Positions 5,483 through 38,104 of a stretch of DNA of 41,420 nucleotides are shown here, in pieces. The position numbers and the translations under genes are program-made. The notes under the pieces were generated by a model that did no database searches, was not told where the DNA came from, and worked only from the letters and a program-made list of their open reading frames with translations. The stretch is from IMG/VR virus record IMGVR_UViG_2721755647_000003, positions 1 through 41,420 of that record. One strand, 5' to 3'. This DNA is from a virus. Its lineage: Duplodnaviria > Heunggongvirae > Uroviricota > Caudoviricetes. The first letter of the stretch is position 1; each line of letters begins with the position of its first letter.

Positions 5483-5572
5483 TTACCTCGGTCTGTTACC
5501 GTTGAGGTAATAATTATGCGTATATGGTTTGATGTCAATAGATATGAGTTAAAAAAATTACCCGTTAGGTAA
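5483..5572. promoter_or_regulatory. Left operator cluster: half-site TTACC at 5483, perfect TTACC-N5-GGTAA at 5496-5510 and 5558-5572
   Basis: Exact inverted repeats read from sequence; lie between the repressor gene terminator and the leftward early genes, the PL/OL position. Confidence 0.55.
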
Positions 5573-5583
5573 TCGAATAGGCA

Positions 5584-5607
5584 ATAAAAAAGCCGCCATA
5601 AGGCGGC
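5584..5607 (-). terminator. Intrinsic terminator downstream of the repressor gene
   Basis: Minus strand reads GCCGCC-TTAT-GGCGGC followed by TTTTTTATT. Confidence 0.6.
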
Positions 5608-5629
5608 TTACTTACTGAAAAATATGGTT

Positions 5630-6214
5630 TTATTGTTTGTTTTTTTCGTTCTGGTTGATGACAAATTCAATGTAACTTTCGATCTTTGCTTTCTCGGTTT
5701 CGGGTAACAATGCGTAGCGCGAGCGATCATAGTTGATGGTCGCAGGGTCGTGCGGGTGAATCAGTAATTCATAGCCGTGACGCCCGAATGCGGATGCAAC
5801 ATTCTCCAGGGTGGAAATGGAAACGCTGACCTCATTGTTTAACAGGCGGCTGATTGTCACCTGGGCTACGCCGGATGCGCGGTGAAGTTTTCCCTGTGTT
5901 GAAAGGTCGCGGCTTTCGCTCATCCAGCGTTCCAGGTTGTGAGCCGCCAGCTGGCCAATGTCGCTTGGGCCGACAGGCTGAAAACCTTCCTGAGAAAGCG
6001 AGCGATCGATATCAAGCCAGTTACGGGGTTTATTGGCGGCAGCTTCAATTTTTCGTGCAACCTGGTCGCCGATAACCTTCTTGCCAAGAGCCCAGCGGTT
6101 TACCAGATTTGCCTGAGTTCCAAGTTTTTCAGCCATCCGCGTCTGAACACCATTGAATTCACGGTCGATCAAGTCGTTGAGATTTTGCCTGCGGACGTCC
6201 TGGATACTTTTCAT
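5630..6214 (-). CDS. Prophage repressor, CI-like, with two HTH (XRE-type) segments and no recognisable S24 peptidase domain (194 aa)
   Basis: HTH-like segments MAEKLGTQANLVNRWALGKK and VAQVTISRLLNNEVSVSISTLENVASAFG; divergent from a Cro-like gene; no GDSM-type Ser/Lys autocleavage motif seen. Confidence 0.75.
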   Translation of the reverse strand: MKSIQDVRRQNLNDLIDREFNGVQTRMAEKLGTQANLVNRWALGKKVIGDQVARKIEAAANKPRNWLDIDRSLSQEGFQPVGPSDIGQLAAHNLERWMSESRDLSTQGKLHRASGVAQVTISRLLNNEVSVSISTLENVASAFGRHGYELLIHPHDPATINYDRSRYALLPETEKAKIESYIEFVINQNEKNKQ

Positions 6215-6269: not shown

Positions 6270-6332
6270 TTACCCAACAGGTAAATGCACCCCACAGGTA
6301 ACTATCCTTGATTTTTGTTACCTTATGGGTGA
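6270..6332. promoter_or_regulatory. Right operator cluster between repressor and cro-like genes: perfect site 6270-6284, half-site about 6295, imperfect site 6318-6332 (GGTGA)
   Basis: TTACC-CAACA-GGTAA and TTACC-TTATG-GGTGA in the 154-bp divergent intergenic region. Confidence 0.6.
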
Positions 6333-6368
6333 ATATTTATTATCTGAAATAAATATCAGGCAATAGCT

Positions 6369-6599
6369 ATGAGCGATAACGGACATTTCGATTTCAAAAA
6401 GCACTGGCTTGCACTTACTCCGGATGAGCGTGAAGCCTTCGCACAGGAAGCCGGAACGACGAGTCACTATATCCAGACTCACTTAACAGGTAAGCGCAAA
6501 ATGCCAGGTAAGGTATTGATGAATGGGCTTTTTAAAGCCTGTAAAACAAGACAATGGCTGCGCTCAAAAGCAGAATTGGCATACTTCTTCTACTCATGA
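6369..6599 (+). CDS. Cro-like / YdaS-type small HTH regulator (76 aa)
   Basis: Small basic ORF divergent from the repressor; sequence resembles YdaS/Cro-family proteins of Rac-like prophages. Confidence 0.65.
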   Translation: MSDNGHFDFKKHWLALTPDEREAFAQEAGTTSHYIQTHLTGKRKMPGKVLMNGLFKACKTRQWLRSKAELAYFFYS

Positions 6600-6645: not shown

Positions 6646-6749
6646 TATCTATTCGTACCTCAAAGGTAATAAAAAACCAAATCTGGTTGATCTTTTTTTT
6701 GTGTCAGCACAAAATGACCGTAATCCCAATACTAATAACAGGGCTTACC

Positions 6750-6965: not shown

Positions 6966-7775
6966 ATGAGCAGACATGCAACAGATTGGGCCTGGGAGAC
7001 AGATCCAGGTAGCTCATCATTAAAGCTCATACTGCTCTCGATGGCTGACAGAGCCGATGAATATAACCTCTGCTACCCCAGCATAGAACGCCTCGTTAAA
7101 GACACTTGCCTGAATAAAAAAACCGTGCAGGCCGGGCTTATATCGCTCATGAAAATGGGGCTTATTTCAGATACCGGAGAGAGAAAGGGAGCGACAAAAA
7201 GAGTGCGGGTTTTCTCTCTTAATATAACCAAAAACGGGAACATTAAAGGCAACCGGGAGGGGGGCAATGAACCCGAAAACGGGAATATACCCGAAAACGG
7301 GAATATACCCGAAAACGGGAATATACCCAAAAACGGGATGTTGAATGATCCCAAAAACGGGATCCAGAACCAGTCATATAACCAGTCATTTAACCAAGAG
7401 AGGGAGAGCAGGACAAAAAGCGGGGATTCTGTGCCTCATGACCCCGGAGCAAACAACGCCGTGATGAATAACTTTGTTCCTCCTGGTGGGCCAGGGCAAT
7501 TAGGCAAATTTGTCATGCATGAACAATGGCAGCCATCAGATGACTTTCTTCGGAAAAGCTCATTGCAGGGGATCTACCTGGACAGTCTGCCAACGGCACA
7601 GGAACTTGCAGAGTTCAGAATTTACTGGATGGCTGAGGGTAAGGCATACCATCAGGCACAGTGGGAGCAGAAGCTGGCAAGGCGGCTGCAGATTAGCAGA
7701 CAGAAGCAATCAACATTACCTGATAACAACGTTCCGCACTGGAACAGCCCTGAAGCATGGGAGGATTTCTTGTGA
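6966..7775 (+). CDS. Replication initiation protein, lambda O-like (N-terminal winged HTH, internal repeat linker, DnaT-like C-terminal domain), 269 aa
   Basis: N-terminal DWAWETDPGSSSLKLILLSMADRADEYNLCYPSIERL replication-protein HTH; C-terminal region DnaT-like; internal ENGNIP repeats encoded by the iterons. Confidence 0.8.
   Translation: MSRHATDWAWETDPGSSSLKLILLSMADRADEYNLCYPSIERLVKDTCLNKKTVQAGLISLMKMGLISDTGERKGATKRVRVFSLNITKNGNIKGNREGGNEPENGNIPENGNIPENGNIPKNGMLNDPKNGIQNQSYNQSFNQERESRTKSGDSVPHDPGANNAVMNNFVPPGGPGQLGKFVMHEQWQPSDDFLRKSSLQGIYLDSLPTAQELAEFRIYWMAEGKAYHQAQWEQKLARRLQISRQKQSTLPDNNVPHWNSPEAWEDFL
7228..7367. repeat. Iteron array inside the O-like gene (putative origin of replication): about six copies of CC(C/A)(G/A)AAAACGGGA, three of them perfect 18-bp tandem units
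   Basis: Tandem CCCGAAAACGGGAATATA at 7272-7289, 7290-7307, 7308-7325; degenerate copies at 7228, 7326, 7350. Confidence 0.7.
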
Positions 7776-8594: not shown

Positions 8595-8671
8595 TTACCT
8601 GTTAGGTAATAAAATATTCTAAAATCTATTGATTTCGTGTCTTATGTGGTTTTTAATTACCTCAGAGGTAA
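8595..8671. promoter_or_regulatory. Two perfect TTACC-N5-GGTAA palindromes (8595-8609, 8657-8671) upstream of the nin-like operon
   Basis: TTACC-TGTTA-GGTAA and TTACC-TCAGA-GGTAA; the second ends 3 nt before the ATG at 8675. Confidence 0.55.
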
Positions 8672-12112: not shown

Positions 12113-12155
12113 GCATGGTACTATTACCACAACGGTAACAATTACCAGGGTGGTT

Positions 12156-12788
12156 ATGATGCCTGCTGAACCTAAAACCTATAAACGCAAATCAACGCAA
12201 TTTAAGCCACTAACCGCAATGCAGGAGGCTTATTGCCAGTCATACATCAAAACGCCTGAAAACCAGACTCAGGCAGCGATTAACGCAGGATTCTCCCCAA
12301 ATACAGCGGCAGTTAAAGCCAGTGTCATGATGCGCGATGAACGCATTCAAAAACGGATTGCCGAGTTGATGGAGGAGCGCAACAAACGAATGCGCGTCAG
12401 TGCCGATTACGTTCTCATGCGCCTGGTGGAGATCGACCAGATGGACGTGCTGGATATACTGAACGATGACGGCGGGATGAAGCCGATCGCTGAATGGCCG
12501 AAGGTCTGGCGTACCTCTCTCAGTGCTATGGATATCGCTACCATCAAGACAACCCAGGCTTCCCTGCAAAAAGAGAATGGCGAGGCGGATCTCTCTGTTG
12601 AGGATGTCGAGCATATCCTGAAGAAGGTGAAATGGCCCGACAAGGTGAAAAACCTCGAGCTCATCGGTAAGCACGTCGACGTTAACGCGTTCAAAGAACG
12701 TCTGGATGTTAATGTGAATGTGACAATTGCTGATCGCATAGCAGCAGCCAGGAAGCGACTCAAAGAACGTCAGGATGGTAATCAGTGA
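12156..12788 (+). CDS. Terminase small subunit, P27-type (210 aa)
   Basis: Resembles P27-family small terminase subunits; ATG at 12156 after AGGGTGG; upstream part of the track ORF overlaps the terminator hairpin; coupled to the large subunit. Confidence 0.75.
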   Translation: MMPAEPKTYKRKSTQFKPLTAMQEAYCQSYIKTPENQTQAAINAGFSPNTAAVKASVMMRDERIQKRIAELMEERNKRMRVSADYVLMRLVEIDQMDVLDILNDDGGMKPIAEWPKVWRTSLSAMDIATIKTTQASLQKENGEADLSVEDVEHILKKVKWPDKVKNLELIGKHVDVNAFKERLDVNVNVTIADRIAAARKRLKERQDGNQ

Positions 12789-14758: not shown

Positions 14759-14921
14759 GAACTGGAAGCAATGAGTTATGCCTTCCGTGGCTGTACGGGT
14801 TTACAGCATGAAGTCATCGCAATGGCGTCCTGCTGTAAAAAGGGCGGTGATAGTCCTTCAAGGGAAACCATCACCGCCAAGCCCCTGGAACTTCTGGCAT
14901 CACGGTCCTTAGGCGTGATTC

Positions 14922-14998
14922 TGGCGTGGCATGCAGGATTCGAACCTGCGACCAACCGCTTAGAAGGCGGTTGCTCTGTCCGACTGAGCTAATGCCAC
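14922..14998 (-). tRNA. tRNA-Arg, anticodon UCU (77 nt, CCA encoded)
   Basis: Cloverleaf folded by hand: acceptor GTGGCAT/ATGCCAC, D-stem GCTC/GAGC, anticodon stem ACCGC/GCGGT with loop CTTCTAA, T-stem GCAGG/CCTGC, T-loop TTCGAAT, discriminator G, CCA. Confidence 0.85.
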
Positions 14999-15320: not shown

Positions 15321-15335
15321 TTACCTGAAAGGTAA
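15321..15335. promoter_or_regulatory. Perfect palindrome TTACC-TGAAA-GGTAA upstream of the morphogenesis operon
   Basis: Exact sequence; AT-rich region about 90 bp before the first structural-block ATG. Confidence 0.55.
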
Positions 15336-19318: not shown

Positions 19319-19334
19319 CGCCTGTTATTAACCT

Positions 19335-19354
19335 GTGGGTCGTAACAGACCCAC
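19335..19354 (+). other. Stem-loop without T-run immediately after the capsid gene
   Basis: GTGGGTC-GTAACA-GACCCAC. Confidence 0.4.
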
Positions 19355-32160: not shown

Positions 32161-32673
32161 TTATACTATTGAATTAAATGATATCTTGTCCTTAATATCA
32201 TTAAGTTTGCCATATATCTTTTTTGCATAAGAATCAGCTTCCTCAATAAACTTCGACTTCTCATTATCAGGCATATTTTTGAAGGTATGTGCACATGTAT
32301 ATTGAGAGTAGTAATTGTGAAACTTGTTATACAAATTATTGAGTTCTTGTAAGTCTTTTTTATACTCAGGAAGGTATATGTTTATTAGCATTTCCATCGT
32401 TTGCAACGGATTGACTTTTGATGTGTCAAATTTACTACCAGAGTGGTAACTGGCATTGTTAACAAAATTGAGAATAGCCACTTCGCTTGAAGCTATGACT
32501 TTTTCAGTAAGTATGCAATTTGTGAATAATTGCTCACGTTTATCTCTTAATATTTTTTCGCGCTCTAATTTTATGCTGTTTTTGTATCCTTGCCTTGCAC
32601 TTATGTAAGTAGAAACTATAGCAATAACTGCACCTATCAATGCGCCTAAGATAGTATTATCCATATAAGCCAC
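32161..32673 (-). CDS. AT-rich membrane-anchored protein of unknown function (170 aa; one N-terminal TM helix, then coiled-coil-like domain)
   Basis: Hydrophobic TILGALIGAVIAIVSTYI segment; Lys/Asn/Tyr-rich remainder; third gene of a minus-strand operon. Confidence 0.6.
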   Translation of the reverse strand: MAYMDNTILGALIGAVIAIVSTYISARQGYKNSIKLEREKILRDKREQLFTNCILTEKVIASSEVAILNFVNNASYHSGSKFDTSKVNPLQTMEMLINIYLPEYKKDLQELNNLYNKFHNYYSQYTCAHTFKNMPDNEKSKFIEEADSYAKKIYGKLNDIKDKISFNSIV

Positions 32674-32689
32674 CTAAACTGCGTAAAAA

Positions 32690-33553
32690 TTATTTCCTGC
32701 CACTTCTGTAGTATATGTTGCGACCATTTTTGGTCACATTAACAACATGCCCCTTTGTTTCTACTTTGTTATTTGTTGCCTTATATACTTCAAAGTCAAA
32801 CCATGATATATGACTTATTTCGTCTATAGATACCATAATTTCTAGACCTTGAACTTTCTTTTTGCTTATCCCTTTTATCGCAGCACTGCGCTTAATTTGG
32901 ATTTCACCTGGGTAAGCGTTTGTAAATGTAACAGATAAATTTTCTTTGTTTCTGTACCCTGACATTAAAGGAACAAAAGATATGTGTTGGTGTGGCCCTT
33001 GATTTTCCGTTAGCTCACCAGAACCATTTATTATTCCAACGTATACTTTATTTGATGATAAAGTAATTAACATTGGTTTCTTAGGATCTGATTCGATTGC
33101 ATCAAGCAATAGCAAATCTAAAGAACCCTGGGAGTACGTTTTTCGCAATACTCTAGCTTTCATTGCCTCTGATATTTTGTCATAAATATCACGTTTATAA
33201 AAACAACCTAAAAGAAGATCTTTTAGCCAAACAAAAGATACATAACACAAAGAGAAGCAAATTGATGTGGCTGAGAGAAGAAGCAGCCACATGTAAATTC
33301 TATCTGTTTCTGGTTTTGATGTTACATTAAAAGTTTCCACCATATCGTGAACTAGGTGAAAATCAGGCCATTTATATTTTATAGCGGCTGCAATTATTAC
33401 TGATGCAACAAGGCAATATGTACCTAGTGCCGCTACCTTCATATAAAGAAGCTGGCCTTCGTGTCGGTATAAACGGAAATAATGATACTGGTTAGCGGTT
33501 ATCATAATATAACCGCTAACCAGGATTGGGATAATTAGAAGAGCTAGCAACAC
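32690..33553 (-). CDS. AT-rich integral membrane protein of unknown function (287 aa; about 3 TM helices plus C-terminal soluble domain)
   Basis: Three hydrophobic segments in the first 110 residues; GTG start overlapping the upstream stop (TAGTG). Confidence 0.6.
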   Translation of the reverse strand: MLLALLIIPILVSGYIMITANQYHYFRLYRHEGQLLYMKVAALGTYCLVASVIIAAAIKYKWPDFHLVHDMVETFNVTSKPETDRIYMWLLLLSATSICFSLCYVSFVWLKDLLLGCFYKRDIYDKISEAMKARVLRKTYSQGSLDLLLLDAIESDPKKPMLITLSSNKVYVGIINGSGELTENQGPHQHISFVPLMSGYRNKENLSVTFTNAYPGEIQIKRSAAIKGISKKKVQGLEIMVSIDEISHISWFDFEVYKATNNKVETKGHVVNVTKNGRNIYYRSGRK

Positions 33554-33762
33554 TACTTCCTTACAGTGGCAAGATCCTGTTTAACAATTGCAGCAGCGAG
33601 ACGACGCATCTCCTTAACCTCAGGAAGCTCAGAAATTTGCTGTGATGAGATATATACTCCACCACGCTTGTTAACCTGCGCTGACGCCGGAACTTCTGCA
33701 TTTTTTGCCTGAGGGCTGGGTGCATTATCCCTCGTTTTTGTACGAGCGAACCAAAATCCCAT
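33553..33762 (-). CDS. Small basic protein (69 aa), first gene of the AT-rich operon; possible DNA-binding or regulatory protein
   Basis: ATG at 33762 with strong GAGGAGG RBS; operator palindrome 27 bp upstream. Confidence 0.6.
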   Translation of the reverse strand: MGFWFARTKTRDNAPSPQAKNAEVPASAQVNKRGGVYISSQQISELPEVKEMRRLAAAIVKQDLATVRK

Positions 33763-33788: not shown

Positions 33789-33803
33789 TTACCTTTAAGG
33801 TAA
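33789..33803. promoter_or_regulatory. Perfect palindrome TTACC-TTTAA-GGTAA upstream of the AT-rich operon
   Basis: Exact sequence; a TAATAT -10-like hexamer lies immediately upstream on the minus strand. Confidence 0.55.
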
Positions 33804-33868: not shown

Positions 33869-34579
33869 TCAGAAGAACCCTGCCTTGTCGTTGATGTACT
33901 CCGCGTGGGTCTGGATATCACGCAGGCATTTACTCACACCGACGATGTAGCAGAACATGGTGGTCAGCTCCGCCGCCGCGCCCGATACATCGTGCCCGTC
34001 TTCCTGTAACTGGTTTAGCAGATTCATCAGCAGTGAGTTCTCCGTCAGGCCGAGAACACCAGACGGCGAATGAATCAGGCTACGGTAGCCGGGCTTCAGT
34101 GGGGCACTGTAGGTTTTGTTCTCTATCTTCATCGCCTGCATTACTGCTGACGCCGTGGCGTTGGCTACCTGGTCGGCAACCATCTTTATGCGTTCTTCCT
34201 GCGGGAGCGAGTTTTTAATGTAGCTTCCGGTGCGGCGGATCTGAGGAAGAACCTCACCTGTAACCCATTTACGAAAGCGGTAGGGGATAGTGCCTGGTGT
34301 CACCGCATCGCGGCAGCGGAGGATCAGTGTGTAGAGGCCTGACTCGGAGATGATGTTGATCTCTTTTACTCGGCTGTCAAAAATTGCACGATGTTCATGC
34401 CCTATGTTGAACATAGACCTTTCATCATCATCCAGTTTTTCAAGTGCTTGGGTGACGTTTTGGATACGCAGCGCACTACAAACGTCTTGGGCTACAAACC
34501 ATGGTTGGCCATCGATAATGATGGAACGGATAGGGTTAACAGATTCAAATTTGAAGATGGCAGTTTGAGCATTAGCCAT
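33869..34579 (-). CDS. Bro-N domain antirepressor-like protein (236 aa)
   Basis: N-terminal FKFESVNPIRSIIIDGQPWFVAQDVCSALRIQN...ESGLYTLILRC Bro-N pattern; ATG at 34579 with GGAGAT RBS. Confidence 0.75.
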   Translation of the reverse strand: MANAQTAIFKFESVNPIRSIIIDGQPWFVAQDVCSALRIQNVTQALEKLDDDERSMFNIGHEHRAIFDSRVKEINIISESGLYTLILRCRDAVTPGTIPYRFRKWVTGEVLPQIRRTGSYIKNSLPQEERIKMVADQVANATASAVMQAMKIENKTYSAPLKPGYRSLIHSPSGVLGLTENSLLMNLLNQLQEDGHDVSGAAAELTTMFCYIVGVSKCLRDIQTHAEYINDKAGFF

Positions 34580-34733
34580 GGTGGTTATCTCCACTTAGTG
34601 ATTTTAATCACCACCGCAACGCCAATTACTGGTGGTGAACTGGACAAGGTTGGCGTACCGGCCTAAGTGGTACCGGCGTCCTTTCGGACCCCTGCCCAGC
34701 CCACCATAATTCGGATATAGCTGTGCTTAACGC

Positions 34734-34758
34734 ATAAAAAAACCACGTCTGGCGTGGT
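34734..34758 (-). terminator. Intrinsic terminator between the two Bro-related genes
   Basis: Minus strand reads ACCACG-CCAGA-CGTGGT followed by TTTTTTTAT. Confidence 0.5.
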
Positions 34759-34848
34759 ATGCGCCACTTAGTAACTCGGGACGCCAATCCCGGCACTGGA
34801 TTTTGCCAGTACCCGATTACTATGGCACAAGAGGAGTGCGATGTAAAT

Positions 34849-34863
34849 TTACCGCAAAGGTAA
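34849..34863. promoter_or_regulatory. Perfect palindrome TTACC-GCAAA-GGTAA
   Basis: Exact sequence, in the intergenic region between the two Bro-related genes. Confidence 0.5.
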
Positions 34864-34894
34864 ATATAAGCACTCCACTTGGTAATTGCAAACC

Positions 34895-35152
34895 TTATCT
34901 GGTTTGTTTTCGTAATTGTTCGGCACAATAGTCGAGATGTGTTTGCAGATCCCGCATAGACATCTGTGAGCTGGTGACGTAGTTAATCAGTGCAGTCAGT
35001 TCGGCAAGTGGGCCATCGACATTAAATCCATCCTTATCGAGATCCCGGAGTAATTTCATCAAGTGCGATCCCTCCACCAGTGACCTGACGCCTCCCGGCG
35101 TGTGAATCCTTTCGGTAAATCCGTCTTCCAGTGGATAGTGATACTGCTGCAT
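34895..35152 (-). CDS. Small protein (85 aa) homologous to the C-terminal domain of the adjacent Bro-N protein
   Basis: Aligns by eye to the Bro-N protein C-terminus (TPGGVRSLVEGSHLMKLLRDL...MRDLQTHLDYC versus SPSGVLGLTENSLLMNLLNQL...LRDIQTHAEYI); ATG at 35152 with GGAG RBS. Confidence 0.6.
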   Translation of the reverse strand: MQQYHYPLEDGFTERIHTPGGVRSLVEGSHLMKLLRDLDKDGFNVDGPLAELTALINYVTSSQMSMRDLQTHLDYCAEQLRKQTR

Positions 35153-35228
35153 CTTATCTTCTCCATGCAATAACTGTATAAATATACAGTATCAAATAAT
35201 TTGTTTGCTATCCAGCACGTTTTGCAAA

Positions 35229-35243
35229 TTACCTGAAAGGTAA
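35229..35243. promoter_or_regulatory. Perfect palindrome TTACC-TGAAA-GGTAA upstream of the tail fibre gene (identical to the 15321 copy)
   Basis: Exact sequence; TATGTGGTTTTT plus a GGTAAT half-site follow at 35275-35294. Confidence 0.55.
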
Positions 35244-35347: not shown

Positions 35348-38104
35348 ATGACGGTCTCAACCGAAGTTGACCACAACGAATACACCGGTAACGGCGCTAC
35401 GACATCATTTCCGTATACCTTCCGTATTTTCAAAAAATCCGACCTGGTTGTTCAGGTGTCTGACCTGAACGGGAACGTAACAGAATTGGTTCTGGATACC
35501 GGTTATACGGTAACTGGGGCGGGCACTTATAGTGGCGGTTCTGTTGTTCTTCCGTCGCCGCTTGCTGCTGGATGGCGAATTACGATAGATCGTGTGCTTG
35601 ATGTAGTGCAGGAGACAGACCTTCGCAATCAGGGAAAATTTTTCCCCGAAGTGCATGAAGATGCTTTTGACTACCTGACGATGCTGATCCAGCAATGTTT
35701 TGGGTGGTTCAGACGTGCATTGATGAAACCATCTTTGCTTGCAAAATATTACGATGCAAAGCAAAACAGAATTTCTAACCTTGCAGATCCATCACTTGAG
35801 CAGGATGCTGTAAATAATCGCTCAATGCGTAATTATGTTGATGCTGCAATCGCCGGAGTTGTTGGTGGTTTTGGTTGGTTTATTCAGTATGGTTCTGGAG
35901 CAGTATACCGAACGTTCCAGGATAAGATGCGGGATAACGTTAACGCTCTTGATTTTGTTCCGTTTGAGCAAAGATATGCTGCATTAAATTTTGAAGTTGA
36001 TGCGTCTGAATGGTTAATTAATGCGATAAATTCTGGTGCAAGTGTCGTTAGAATACCTGCAGGTAAATGGATGATTTCTAAGAACATAGATGTGCCTCCT
36101 GGAGTGTCATTAATTGGTGATGGCATTGATTATTGGGATACATATAGACCAGCGCCTGAAAGATTATTAAAAAGTTGGAGTAAAGGAACCCATCTTGTAT
36201 TTACTGGTGATGGAGAAAAAAACAAATATTTTTTTAACATCTCTAATGAAAGACCAGTTAAAATTGTTGAAGGGATATCTTGTAAGTTCACTGAGTTTAC
36301 AAATGAAGATTCTGTAGGTGTTACTCCTGCTACACCAAAAGCCATGAGCGTAGCTGTTAGTATCAACAGGGCATCACAGTTACGCAACCTGAGAATAATG
36401 GTAAGTAAAAATGGTATTGAAGGATACAATAACCCTGATTCTTATTCATTGGGTGATGACTGGGATATAGGGTTGCATGTATACGATAGCTGTGATTCAG
36501 TTATTGATAACGTACAGATTGTCGGCTATTGGAGGGTAAAAGGACTACTACTGACAGAAAATGACGGGAGCCTTTCAATGAAGGGAAATCCTGAAAAAAC
36601 GCACTTTAATAACGTTTATGTCCAGTCAGGGATCGCGATAAGGAATAGCCCTCAGATTGATCTTGTAAGTAATACTGAAAGCTCAGTGACATTTAAACAT
36701 AAAAAGTCGATGAGAATAACTTCAGTTAAACAGTTTAAAATTGCTGGCAGTGAATCAGTATATACGTATTCAGATGCATCATTTGATGGAGCTAACATCA
36801 CACTATCTGGTATTTCTCCTGAAATACAAGGTACAATAAGTGTAATCAGGTTTCCGTCAATTGGTAATAATTTTAGCGGGACTGTTTTTGAGAATACAGT
36901 AGCCACTACTCTTGATCATACATCAGGTAAGCCATCAGAATACTTTGGCCTTCCTGCATCCTTTGCATTAGAGGTTGATGGTTTCCCTGTTCGTAATTTA
37001 AGGTTTGATAAATTCAAAGCTCAAACAACATTTGATAAAGGAAATTGCATTTTTGGTGATTGCCGTGATGTTAAAATAACATCATCTGAGTTTGAAAATG
37101 GAATTATGATTGCGTATAACCTGACCGAGACTCAGGGTTATACAGGAAATCTTAGATTTTTTGCTTCTGATCTTCAGAGCAGCGTTAACACAAGTGAGTT
37201 TAAACCAAGAGACGCATTTGTAGACAATAGACAAATAAAAACGGAGTTTACTGATGGTTCGTTCATTATAAAGAACTGGAGGCCTACAGATACAAAAATA
37301 CAATGGTCGTCTGGAGTAGATGCTATTGTTCTTAGAGAGTCACCTGACGAACAATCAGACGGAAATATTTACGGGTATCACATTGATGGTAAAAGATGGA
37401 TTAATGTTAGTGGATATAACAAAGATATAAATATTTCATCAAGAAACTTAAGCGTAAAAAACCATGGTGATGACTCTGCAGTTATTAATATATTCGGCGA
37501 CTCTGGAAATATTGCCATTAAAGGTAATTTTTCACCAATTATTGATAACAGCAAATCTCTTGGTGCACCATCATTTAGATGGGCACAGGTTTATTCTGCG
37601 AACGGTTCGATAAACACATCAGATGGTAGAGAAAAAAGTGAACCGATTAGTACAAGTGAGCTCAGCTTGTATATGTCTCGTGGTTATGAAGGTGATGCAA
37701 TTCTGGATGCATGGGGAGATATCAGGATTGTAGCTTTTCGCTGGCTTGATGCCGTCAGGGAAAAGGGAGATGGTGCCCGCTGGCATTTTGGTGTTATAGC
37801 ACAACAAGTGAGAGACACTTTCCTCGCGCATGGGATTGATGGAACCAGATTTGGCCTTCTCTGTTACGATGAATGGGATGATAAATACGCGCCAGTGATG
37901 GCGGTAAGGATGATCACTAAAGTTGTGGATGGCGTCGAAATTGAGATGGAAGAAGAATACGAAACAGAAGAGCGAACTCTGGTTTGCAAGGCTGGAAATA
38001 GGTGGGGTATCCGTACTGACCAGTGTTTATGGCTTGAGTCAGCTTATTTGCGTAGAAGAATCGAAAAAATAGAATCACGTCTTGCAATGCTTAAAAGTAG
38101 CTAA
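35348..38104 (+). CDS. Tail fibre / tailspike protein (918 aa): conserved N-terminal virion-attachment region, AT-rich central receptor-binding region, C-terminal chaperone-like domain
   Basis: N-terminus MTVSTEVDHNEYTGNGATTSFPYTF typical of podoviral tail fibre anchors; central part Asn/Ser/Ile-rich and AT-rich; C-terminal region resembles intramolecular-chaperone domains (inference). Confidence 0.75.
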   Translation: MTVSTEVDHNEYTGNGATTSFPYTFRIFKKSDLVVQVSDLNGNVTELVLDTGYTVTGAGTYSGGSVVLPSPLAAGWRITIDRVLDVVQETDLRNQGKFFPEVHEDAFDYLTMLIQQCFGWFRRALMKPSLLAKYYDAKQNRISNLADPSLEQDAVNNRSMRNYVDAAIAGVVGGFGWFIQYGSGAVYRTFQDKMRDNVNALDFVPFEQRYAALNFEVDASEWLINAINSGASVVRIPAGKWMISKNIDVPPGVSLIGDGIDYWDTYRPAPERLLKSWSKGTHLVFTGDGEKNKYFFNISNERPVKIVEGISCKFTEFTNEDSVGVTPATPKAMSVAVSINRASQLRNLRIMVSKNGIEGYNNPDSYSLGDDWDIGLHVYDSCDSVIDNVQIVGYWRVKGLLLTENDGSLSMKGNPEKTHFNNVYVQSGIAIRNSPQIDLVSNTESSVTFKHKKSMRITSVKQFKIAGSESVYTYSDASFDGANITLSGISPEIQGTISVIRFPSIGNNFSGTVFENTVATTLDHTSGKPSEYFGLPASFALEVDGFPVRNLRFDKFKAQTTFDKGNCIFGDCRDVKITSSEFENGIMIAYNLTETQGYTGNLRFFASDLQSSVNTSEFKPRDAFVDNRQIKTEFTDGSFIIKNWRPTDTKIQWSSGVDAIVLRESPDEQSDGNIYGYHIDGKRWINVSGYNKDINISSRNLSVKNHGDDSAVINIFGDSGNIAIKGNFSPIIDNSKSLGAPSFRWAQVYSANGSINTSDGREKSEPISTSELSLYMSRGYEGDAILDAWGDIRIVAFRWLDAVREKGDGARWHFGVIAQQVRDTFLAHGIDGTRFGLLCYDEWDDKYAPVMAVRMITKVVDGVEIEMEEEYETEERTLVCKAGNRWGIRTDQCLWLESAYLRRRIEKIESRLAMLKSS

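Follow-up and report, generated by a model that had tools for sequence, protein, structure and literature searches.

The repressor gene of this prophage raises the question of how lysogeny can be ended when the protein that maintains it shows two helix-turn-helix (HTH)-like segments and no recognisable domain for self-cleavage. The window, i.e., the whole stretch of 41,420 nucleotides analysed here, is, as judged by sequence comparison, an E. coli prophage of the phiV10/epsilon15 type, because its immunity region, the region around the repressor gene rep, is 97-99% identical to that of Uetakevirus phages and is common in E. coli genomes. The phages that share this level of identity are the Escherichia members phiV10, PAS61, ZX5 and the O157 typing phages 9 and 10, with the Enterobacter and Salmonella members of Uetakevirus being more distant relatives of the rep region, and 561 of the 5426 complete E. 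coli genomes searched contain the immunity region. By analogy with Salmonella phage SPC32H, it is very likely that lysogeny is governed here by an SPC32H-type (Uetakevirus) switch, in which an uncleavable repressor, Rep, would be inactivated by a LexA-controlled antirepressor, Ant. Some doubt remains, since the experimentally characterised protein, SPC32H Rep, shares only 43% identity with Rep and since the evidence on the window phage itself comes from its sequence.

The repressor gene and the parts of its product are the following:
5630..6214 (-): rep, encoding the 194-aa lysogeny repressor; ATG start; 100% identity to phiV10 gp40 and 43% to SPC32H Rep
5590..5609 (-): terminator-like hairpin 3' of rep, from a hairpin scan; a terminator in the phiV10 annotation
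5999..6214 (-): Rep residues 1-72, N-terminal HTH DNA-binding domain; 53% identity to SPC32H Rep, with an invariant NLVNRW motif
5765..5950 (-): Rep residues 89-150, second HTH_3-like segment; counterpart of the middle dimerisation domain of SPC32H Rep, 34% identity
5645..5764 (-): Rep residues 151-190, C-terminal segment; counterpart of the tetramerisation and Ant-binding domain (CAD / TetDloop) of SPC32H Rep, 47.5% identity

A preliminary description of this locus credited the 194-aa repressor with two HTH-like segments in tandem, and a whole-protein scan does give Pfam HTH_3 matches in two stretches. When the halves were scanned separately, residues 106-147 reached 25.8 bits with HTH_3, above the 23-bit gathering score, and residues 24-67 gave 15.7 bits with HTH_3 and 20.3 bits with a YdaS-type HTH, both below threshold; together, the N-terminal matches (HTH_3 and YdaS-type) span residues 21-67. 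The presence of two such segments is already stated in GenBank for phiV10, whose gp40 is identical to the window Rep and is said there to have 'two helix-turn-helix motifs'. The term tandem is nevertheless misleading, since in the SPC32H homologue the second segment is a dimerisation domain and the N-terminal one alone is described as DNA-binding. An internal duplication was considered and rejected: the best match between the two halves, 19 residues long, has E 0.022, too weak to be meaningful, which argues against a recent duplication. The third, C-terminal segment (about residues 151-190) had been left out of the preliminary description.

The most informative comparison is with the SPC32H structures. 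Rep residues 1-190 align end to end with residues 2-197 of PDB 5D50_A, entitled "Repressor" (phmmer E 4e-42), and residues 89-190 match PDB 5D4Z (E 4e-20). Of these entries, 5D4Z is the SPC32H repressor fragment 92-198 and 5D50 the SPC32H repressor bound to its antirepressor. A structural paper that reviews this work divides SPC32H Rep into an N-terminal DNA-binding domain (DBD), a middle dimerisation domain (MDD) and a C-terminal CAD or "TetDloop", the CAD being the part that forms the tetramer and binds Ant (PMC9986798). According to another paper, Rep on DNA is a tetramer, and a tetrameric Ant binds two Rep dimers and splits the tetramer (PMC9638917). Over the whole of Rep (residues 1-194) the identity to SPC32H Rep is 43%, the DNA-binding domain being the best-conserved part.

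The preliminary description had also failed to find a LexA/CI-type S24 domain, and profile searches agree with it. Peptidase_S24 was absent at E<=1 in the whole protein and at E<=10 in the separate halves (Pfam), and was absent too in NCBIfam; there is no Ala-Gly or Cys-Gly dipeptide in Rep, nor any cysteine; and BLASTP of Rep against LexA and lambda CI, a weak check, returned no similarity. The end-to-end alignment with 5D50_A leaves no room for an S24 domain, and since the DBD, MDD and CAD cover the whole Rep chain, such a domain is not needed to explain it. With neither the S24 domain nor a cleavage-site dipeptide, Rep falls outside the S24 (LexA / lambda CI-type) family. It shares with lambda CI, P22 C2 and LexA an N-terminal HTH repressor architecture that keeps lysogeny from a divergent promoter region, but those proteins are S24 autocleaving repressors, whereas Rep has a different C-terminal oligomerisation module. 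Conversely, every feature of an SPC32H-type Rep that lends itself to comparison at this level was found, namely full-length homology of both partners, absence of S24, synteny, a LexA box and the shared operator. In terms of its sequence, the window protein is an SPC32H-type Rep without a self-cleavage domain.

The control region around rep contains the following elements:
5496..5510 and 5558..5572: two operator palindromes past the rep terminator, flanking the leftward early promoter-like site
5538..5510 (-): leftward early promoter-like site TTGACA-17-AATTAT, from a promoter scan
6270..6284 (exact) and 6318..6332 (one mismatch): operators in the intergenic region between rep and the cro-like gene, from a palindrome scan
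6315..6343 (+): rightward promoter-like site, overlapped by the operator 6318..6332
6369..6599 (+): divergent cro-like early regulator of 76 aa (phrog_35)

The palindrome TTACC-N5-GGTAA occurs in the window at ten exact and six one-mismatch sites, when about 0.6 would be expected, and none of 100 shuffles reached 16 matches. The consensus is ATTACC-T-N3-A-GGTAAT, corresponding to the 17-bp palindrome ATTACC-N5-GGTAAT, and the operators are simple 2-fold palindromes built from a single type of 5-bp half-site. Further copies, at 6655, 8595, 8657, 12124, 15321, 33789, 34849 and 35229, lie in front of blocks of early, late and accessory genes. In the epsilon15 GenBank record, the equivalent palindromes near rep and at ant are annotated 'protein_bind repressor', and the repressor itself carries the annotation "HHpred: 5d50_A". 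Rep would thus be expected to bind the ATTACC-N5-GGTAAT palindromes in the window's phage.

One of these operators lies upstream of a small gene far from rep, in a region with three features:
34895..35152 (-): ant, encoding an 85-aa antirepressor; orthologue of SPC32H Ant (PDB 5D50_E, "Anti-repressor protein", E 2e-46)
35172..35191: LexA box, TACTGTATATTTATACAGTT on the gene strand; 18 of 20 consensus positions, with its end 20 nt upstream of the ant ATG (35152)
35229..35243: operator palindrome, ATTACCTTTCAGGTAAT on the gene strand; kept in all eight phages aligned and annotated as a repressor site in epsilon15

The window ant is 84.6% identical to the annotated SPC32H ant and, like the latter, is flanked by the last tail gene and the tailspike gene, to which it runs antiparallel; Pfam finds no Bro-N domain in the small Ant. 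The LexA box is the sole site in the window with three or fewer mismatches to the 20-mer consensus (0.00 expected). Its core, CTGT-N8-ACAG, has four matches in the window, only that of 35172..35191 having an A+T-rich spacer; the cores at 14791, 19333 and 36354, with G+C-rich spacers and more than three mismatches to the 20-mer consensus, were rejected as SOS boxes. An alignment of the region upstream of ant covered eight phages, namely the window's, phiV10, SPC32H, epsilon15, Tyrion, BUCT554 and two that infect Klebsiella. Six of them, those of Escherichia, Salmonella and Enterobacter, keep the LexA core, with the two Klebsiella phages showing an altered left half of the box. All eight keep the ATTACC-N5-GGTAA palindrome, which lies roughly 40 bp beyond the core as seen from ant, while the bases around core and operator diverge. 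Taken together, box and conservation point to LexA control of ant through the site at 35172..35191. A consensus promoter scan called no ant promoter, so that the overlap between LexA box and promoter is judged from position only.

The LexA-boxed 85-aa ant (34895..35152(-)) is the link that was missing from the preliminary description. With respect to SPC32H, the 2013 work of Kim & Ryu is said to have found that Rep stays uncleaved during SOS and that ant is LexA-controlled, that one substituted base in the LexA site turns the sibling phage SPC32N lytic, and that the SPC32H-type Ant is structurally distinct from the Gifsy/Fels-1 and 186 Tum antirepressors. For Salmonella prophages of this kind, a review, which cites Kim & Ryu 2013 among other work, describes a sequence in which LexA cleaves itself, Ant is made and the repressor is inhibited by protein-protein contact (PMC7380047).

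The proposed switch joins domain content, homologies, sites and their conservation, all determined here, to inactivation by Ant binding and a Rep tetramer, both demonstrated in relatives. Rep tetramers would close the divergent early promoters around rep and some ten further promoter regions through ATTACC-N5-GGTAAT, and Rep would be unable to cleave itself. In the lysogen, host LexA sitting on the near-consensus SOS box would keep ant shut, about 29 kb away from rep. Upon DNA damage, RecA would become active, LexA would cleave itself and the 85-aa Ant would be made; Ant would then bind the C-terminal domain of Rep, taking the tetramer apart and off the DNA, and the lytic promoters would fire. 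Departure of Rep from the operator beside the ant promoter would presumably add a positive feedback on ant. We infer that these LexA, Ant and Rep events take place in the window's E. coli prophage too, with Ant-Rep binding being an extrapolation from SPC32H, given the 43% overall identity of Rep and the 47.5% identity of its Ant-binding segment. As a Rep operator also lies upstream of ant, loss of LexA alone might not fully derepress the gene.

Downstream of ant, the phage carries a second candidate antirepressor gene preceded by two small RNAs:
34891..34863 (-): promoter-like site TTGCAA-17-TATATT upstream of isrK / C4 / Bro-N, from a promoter scan
34849..34863: operator ahead of isrK / C4 / Bro-N, in contact with the -10 hexamer of that promoter-like site
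34736..34812 (-): isrK-family RNA with its own terminator hairpin (Rfam RF01394, 63.5 bits against a threshold of 50)
34628..34711 (-): C4-family antisense RNA of the P1 c4 / P4 CI type (Rfam RF01695, 66 bits against a threshold of 45)
33869..34579 (-): Bro-N gene with a 236-aa product, N-terminal Bro-N and C-terminal Ant-like domain; probable ATG at 34579
33789..33803: operator between the Bro-N gene and the three-ORF cluster that follows it

Several Bro-N genes behind the operator palindrome had been proposed. The position is borne out by the site at 34849..34863, but the number is not: by Pfam, and by tblastn with the Bro-N domain as query, the window has a single such gene. The product of the ORF 33869..34594(-) matches Pfam Bro-N (PF02498) with E 1e-19 and 71.4 bits, the cut-off being 25.6. 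Over its last 74 residues it shares 43% identity with the small Ant (E 2e-16), and by sequence the C-terminus of the Bro-N protein is a paralogue of Ant. Compared with ZX5 ORF4, the protein is 81% identical overall and identical over the last 167 residues; in phiV10 it is shortened to 194 aa, most of the Ant-like domain being gone. The three-ORF cluster downstream gave no match in Pfam or PADLOC.

The arrangement of the two RNAs suggests how the gene may be kept silent. In C4, the loop predicted to stay unpaired contains CCACUUAG at 34670..34663, and the exact complement of this sequence, CUAAGUGG, occurs twice, once at 34771..34764 in the isrK linker and once at 34598..34591, where it is fused to the GGAG Shine-Dalgarno of the Bro-N gene. 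Both the single-stranded isrK linker ACUAAGUGG (34772..34764) and the Shine-Dalgarno region of the Bro-N gene, CUAAGUGGAG, are thus complementary to the C4 loop. The energies of the full-length C4/target duplexes beat shuffles only modestly (they were reached by 6 of 500 and 31 of 500), and the case for C4 pairing rests for that reason on the exact 8-9 nt complementarity of loop and targets. The isrK and C4 pair was also found ahead of the antirepressor genes of phiV10, Tyrion and Klebsiella phage phi13.3; SPC32H does not have it.

In the proposed switch, the Bro-N::Ant-like fusion would accordingly be placed downstream of ant under both a Rep operator and an isrK/C4 switch that masks its ribosome-binding site, and in a lysogen the gene should be silenced by Rep as well as by the C4 RNA. 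As it would be silent in the lysogen behind Rep's own operator, it could not start induction; being doubly silenced and without an SOS box, it is unlikely to be the primary trigger of DNA-damage induction. It is plausible that the Bro-N protein is a second antirepressor. The repressor of ZX5 is reported to be identical to phiV10 ORF40 (PMC9782041), which is in turn identical to the window Rep, so the ZX5 and window repressors are the same protein. In ZX5 (vB_EcoP_ZX5), the repressor and ORF4 were both tried by overexpression: the former wiped out free phage, and the latter lowered the lysogens from 1e9 to 1e6 (~1000-fold) and the repressor transcripts by 75% (PMC9782041). These results back, directly though crudely, the idea of the preliminary description that the Bro-N protein works against this repressor. 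In Gifsy-1, an RNA switch governs translation of the antirepressor AnrP, which is able to induce the prophage (PMC4825925). In the light of the ZX5 overexpression results, the Bro-N::Ant-like fusion probably provides an SOS-independent or anti-immunity route. A more elaborate reading, in which the phage has two paralogous Rep-binding Ant modules with different inputs, i.e., a LexA-gated Ant with positive feedback through the Rep operator and a Bro-N::Ant gated by Rep and isrK/C4, is put forward tentatively, as a possibility on the doubtful side. The Bro-N::Ant route could answer SOS-independent signals, superinfection or prophage cross-talk.

The alternatives to the LexA-Ant-Rep switch differ in the step that they change. 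Formally, the missing S24 signature leaves room for inactivation of Rep by RecA-stimulated or other proteolysis, at a non-canonical site or by a host protease, with the antirepressors being accessory. Nothing positive was found for such a cleavage, and it has to be set against the absence of S24 from Rep at any threshold, the absence of both dipeptides, a chain entirely accounted for by the DBD, MDD and CAD of 5D50_A, and papers citing the SPC32H work that describe inactivation by Ant binding and not cleavage; this alternative is exceedingly improbable. Another possibility concerns the way Rep reads DNA, both HTH segments being DNA-binding and Rep a true tandem-HTH repressor that takes two half-sites per monomer. 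The second segment is indeed a better match than the first to Pfam HTH_3, HTH_26 and LacI-type profiles, and the C-terminal HTH was taken as the DNA-binding one by the ZX5 authors (PMC9782041). However, the homologue fragment 92-198 is described as the dimerisation, tetramerisation and Ant-binding portion, the DNA-binding domain being N-terminal (PMC9986798); the operators have simple 2-fold symmetry and a single type of 5-bp half-site; and the N-terminal domain is the one most conserved (53%) between phages that have their operators in common, the window's and SPC32H. A true tandem-HTH repressor is, hence, very improbable, and by analogy with SPC32H the most likely role of the "second HTH" is dimerisation and not a second reading of DNA.

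The remaining alternative keeps the antirepressor principle and changes its agent: the Bro-N antirepressor (33869..34579(-)) would titrate Rep and drive induction, the small ant being dispensable. The Bro-N domain is present (71 bits), and the C-terminal domain has 43% identity to Ant, but the phiV10 protein has lost most of that domain, and SPC32H, epsilon15 and BUCT554 have no Bro-N gene, yet keep ant with its LexA box. ZX5 ORF4, with which the last 167 residues are identical, favoured the lytic pathway on overexpression against an identical Rep; that experiment was, however, an overexpression in infection and not a prophage induction. The isrK-controlled AnrP of Gifsy-1 can induce its prophage (PMC4825925), whereas the Bro-N transcription unit in the window starts at a promoter-like site touching a Rep operator, has a ribosome-binding site complementary to the C4 loop, which would leave it doubly silenced in the lysogen, and has no LexA box. 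Induction driven by the Bro-N protein is thus improbable. What survives of the antirepressor-driven induction suggested in the preliminary description is its principle, through orthology to the SPC32H Rep-Ant pair, which is characterised by experiment and structure; the mechanism as described there, with the Bro-N gene as an unlikely trigger, lacks a DNA-damage sensor.

Among the known systems, SPC32H Rep-Ant (Kim & Ryu 2013; Kim et al. 2016; PDB 5D4Z, 5D50) is the closest to the LexA-Ant-Rep switch proposed here. It belongs to the same genus, Uetakevirus, has its genes in the same positions and presents, as the window does, a LexA box and a Rep operator with ATTACC-N5-GGTAAT half-sites upstream of ant. 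The differences are that the Rep proteins are just 43% identical, compared with about 85% for Ant, that SPC32H has no isrK / C4 / Bro-N::Ant-like cassette, which in the window follows ant, and that SPC32H is a Salmonella phage while the window host is E. coli. Since Ant is that much more conserved than Rep, antirepressors might cross-induce heteroimmune Uetakevirus prophages.

The RNA-controlled cassette has other counterparts. The P1 immI region (c4-icd-ant operon) resembles the isrK/C4/Bro-N layout of the window, and P4 CI with seqA/seqC has the same arrangement, with a C4-type loop complementary to an upstream target and a ribosome-binding-site target. In the isrK-orf45(STnc1160)-anrP region of Gifsy-1, isrK and C4-family RNAs precede an antirepressor gene, as in the window (PMC4825925). 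With respect to P1 immI, P4 and Gifsy-1, the window cassette is distinguished by its predicted control of a Bro-N::Ant-like fusion and by lying directly downstream of a LexA-controlled ant; with respect to P1 immI and Gifsy-1, it has no evident orf45- or icd-like coupled ORF. The LexA-controlled antirepressors of Gifsy-1, Gifsy-3 and Fels-1 (Lemire et al. 2011) and Tum of coliphage 186 follow the same logic as the window and were compared by logic only. This shared logic consists of an uncleavable repressor and a LexA-repressed small antirepressor gene whose product is made on SOS induction (PMC7380047).

An uncleavable Rep with antirepressor induction is already known for the genus Uetakevirus, and the GenBank records of phiV10 and epsilon15 state part of it. 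The small Ant, the LexA box and the RNAs receive no mention in the phiV10 or ZX5 records or in the ZX5 paper, where the words 'LexA' and 'SPC32H' have zero occurrences (PMC9782041). Likewise, neither the paralogy between Ant and the Bro-N C-terminus nor the isrK/C4 cassette in these E. coli phages appears in the phiV10/ZX5 annotation or in the ZX5 paper (PMC9782041), although both carry little novelty because they recombine known modules. The sole mildly new element is the RNA-gated, Bro-N::Ant-like second antirepressor, and the main gain is the correct annotation of the locus rather than a discovery: in most of the 561 E. coli records, Rep is labelled merely 'HTH domain-containing protein' and ant 'hypothetical protein'.

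The SPC32H-type LexA-Ant-Rep assignment predicts that these prophages would be SOS-inducible without repressor cleavage and that their induction would be reversible, and that point mutations in ant or in the LexA box could make them virulent. A 21- to 47-fold induction of Uetakevirus phiV10 prophages has been reported for microcin Mcc1229, which is among the bacteriocins called DNA-damaging in the title of the paper concerned (bioRxiv 10.64898/2026.05.26.727859), and such an induction of prophages of the phiV10 species fits the LexA-Ant-Rep model.

The small antirepressor Ant, encoded behind a LexA box, and the last 74 residues of the 236-aa Bro-N protein are paralogues (43% identity, E 2e-16), which suggests, at the level of sequence, that the prophage may carry two modules able to bind the lysogeny repressor Rep, one being Ant itself and the other the Bro-N C-terminus. 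The two genes are:
34895..35152 (-), ant
33869..34579 (-), Bro-N gene
The Bro-N protein of the related phage phiV10 stops at 194 aa, most of the Ant-like C-terminal domain being missing. In comparison with SPC32H, a Salmonella phage whose Rep-Ant pair has been solved, conservation is asymmetric, with Ant about 85% identical and Rep only 43% identical. Despite this divergence of Rep, the half-sites of the SPC32H operator are the same as those of the palindrome TTACC-N5-GGTAA. Given this asymmetry and the common half-sites, one may ask whether this prophage and SPC32H could cross-induce each other or share immunity.

Between ant and the Bro-N gene, Rfam significantly identifies RNAs of the isrK and C4 families (34628..34812, minus strand). 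The C4 loop CCACUUAG has as its complement CUAAGUGG, which is found both within isrK and at the Shine-Dalgarno sequence of the Bro-N gene. phiV10, Tyrion and the Klebsiella phage ST512-KPC3phi13.3 carry this isrK/C4 pair as well, and SPC32H lacks it. The records of phiV10 and ZX5 annotate neither RNA; that of ZX5 labels a small ORF at this position as 'ash family protein'.

Palindromes matching the operator also stand before the blocks of terminase and head genes, as well as before further operons distant from rep, and Rep may directly repress late and accessory promoters:
8595..8609, operator palindrome
8657..8671, operator palindrome
12124..12138, operator palindrome
12142..12156, operator palindrome
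15321..15335, operator palindrome
Equivalents of these distant sites carry annotation in epsilon15. The motif CTGT-N8-ACAG occurs four times in the window (0.54 expected), including three further matches with G+C-rich spacers:
14791..14806
19333..19348
36354..36369
Because of these spacers and of their failure against the 20-mer LexA consensus, they are probably not SOS boxes.

Downstream of the operator at 33789..33803 lies a cluster of ORFs, beside which a further one is found:
32161..33762 (-), ORFs of 69, 287 and 170 aa
31484..32044 (+), ORF of 186 aa
Their sole matches were PHROG families of unknown function, with no significant match in Pfam and none in PADLOC. It has the look of an accessory (moron) cassette that was inserted between the tail genes and the antirepressor region, and the cluster is described here on that footing. 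An inverted repeat with a perfect 15-bp stem, CTGGTTAGCGGTTAT-ATTATG-ATAACCGCTAACCAG (33488..33523, minus strand), lies within the start of the 287-aa ORF.

Elsewhere, a tRNA-Arg gene (anticodon TCT; 14922..14998, minus strand), also present in phiV10, sits between the terminase and portal regions, and the DnaT-like replication protein (6966..7775, plus strand) contains about three copies of the short tandem peptide repeat NGNIPE.
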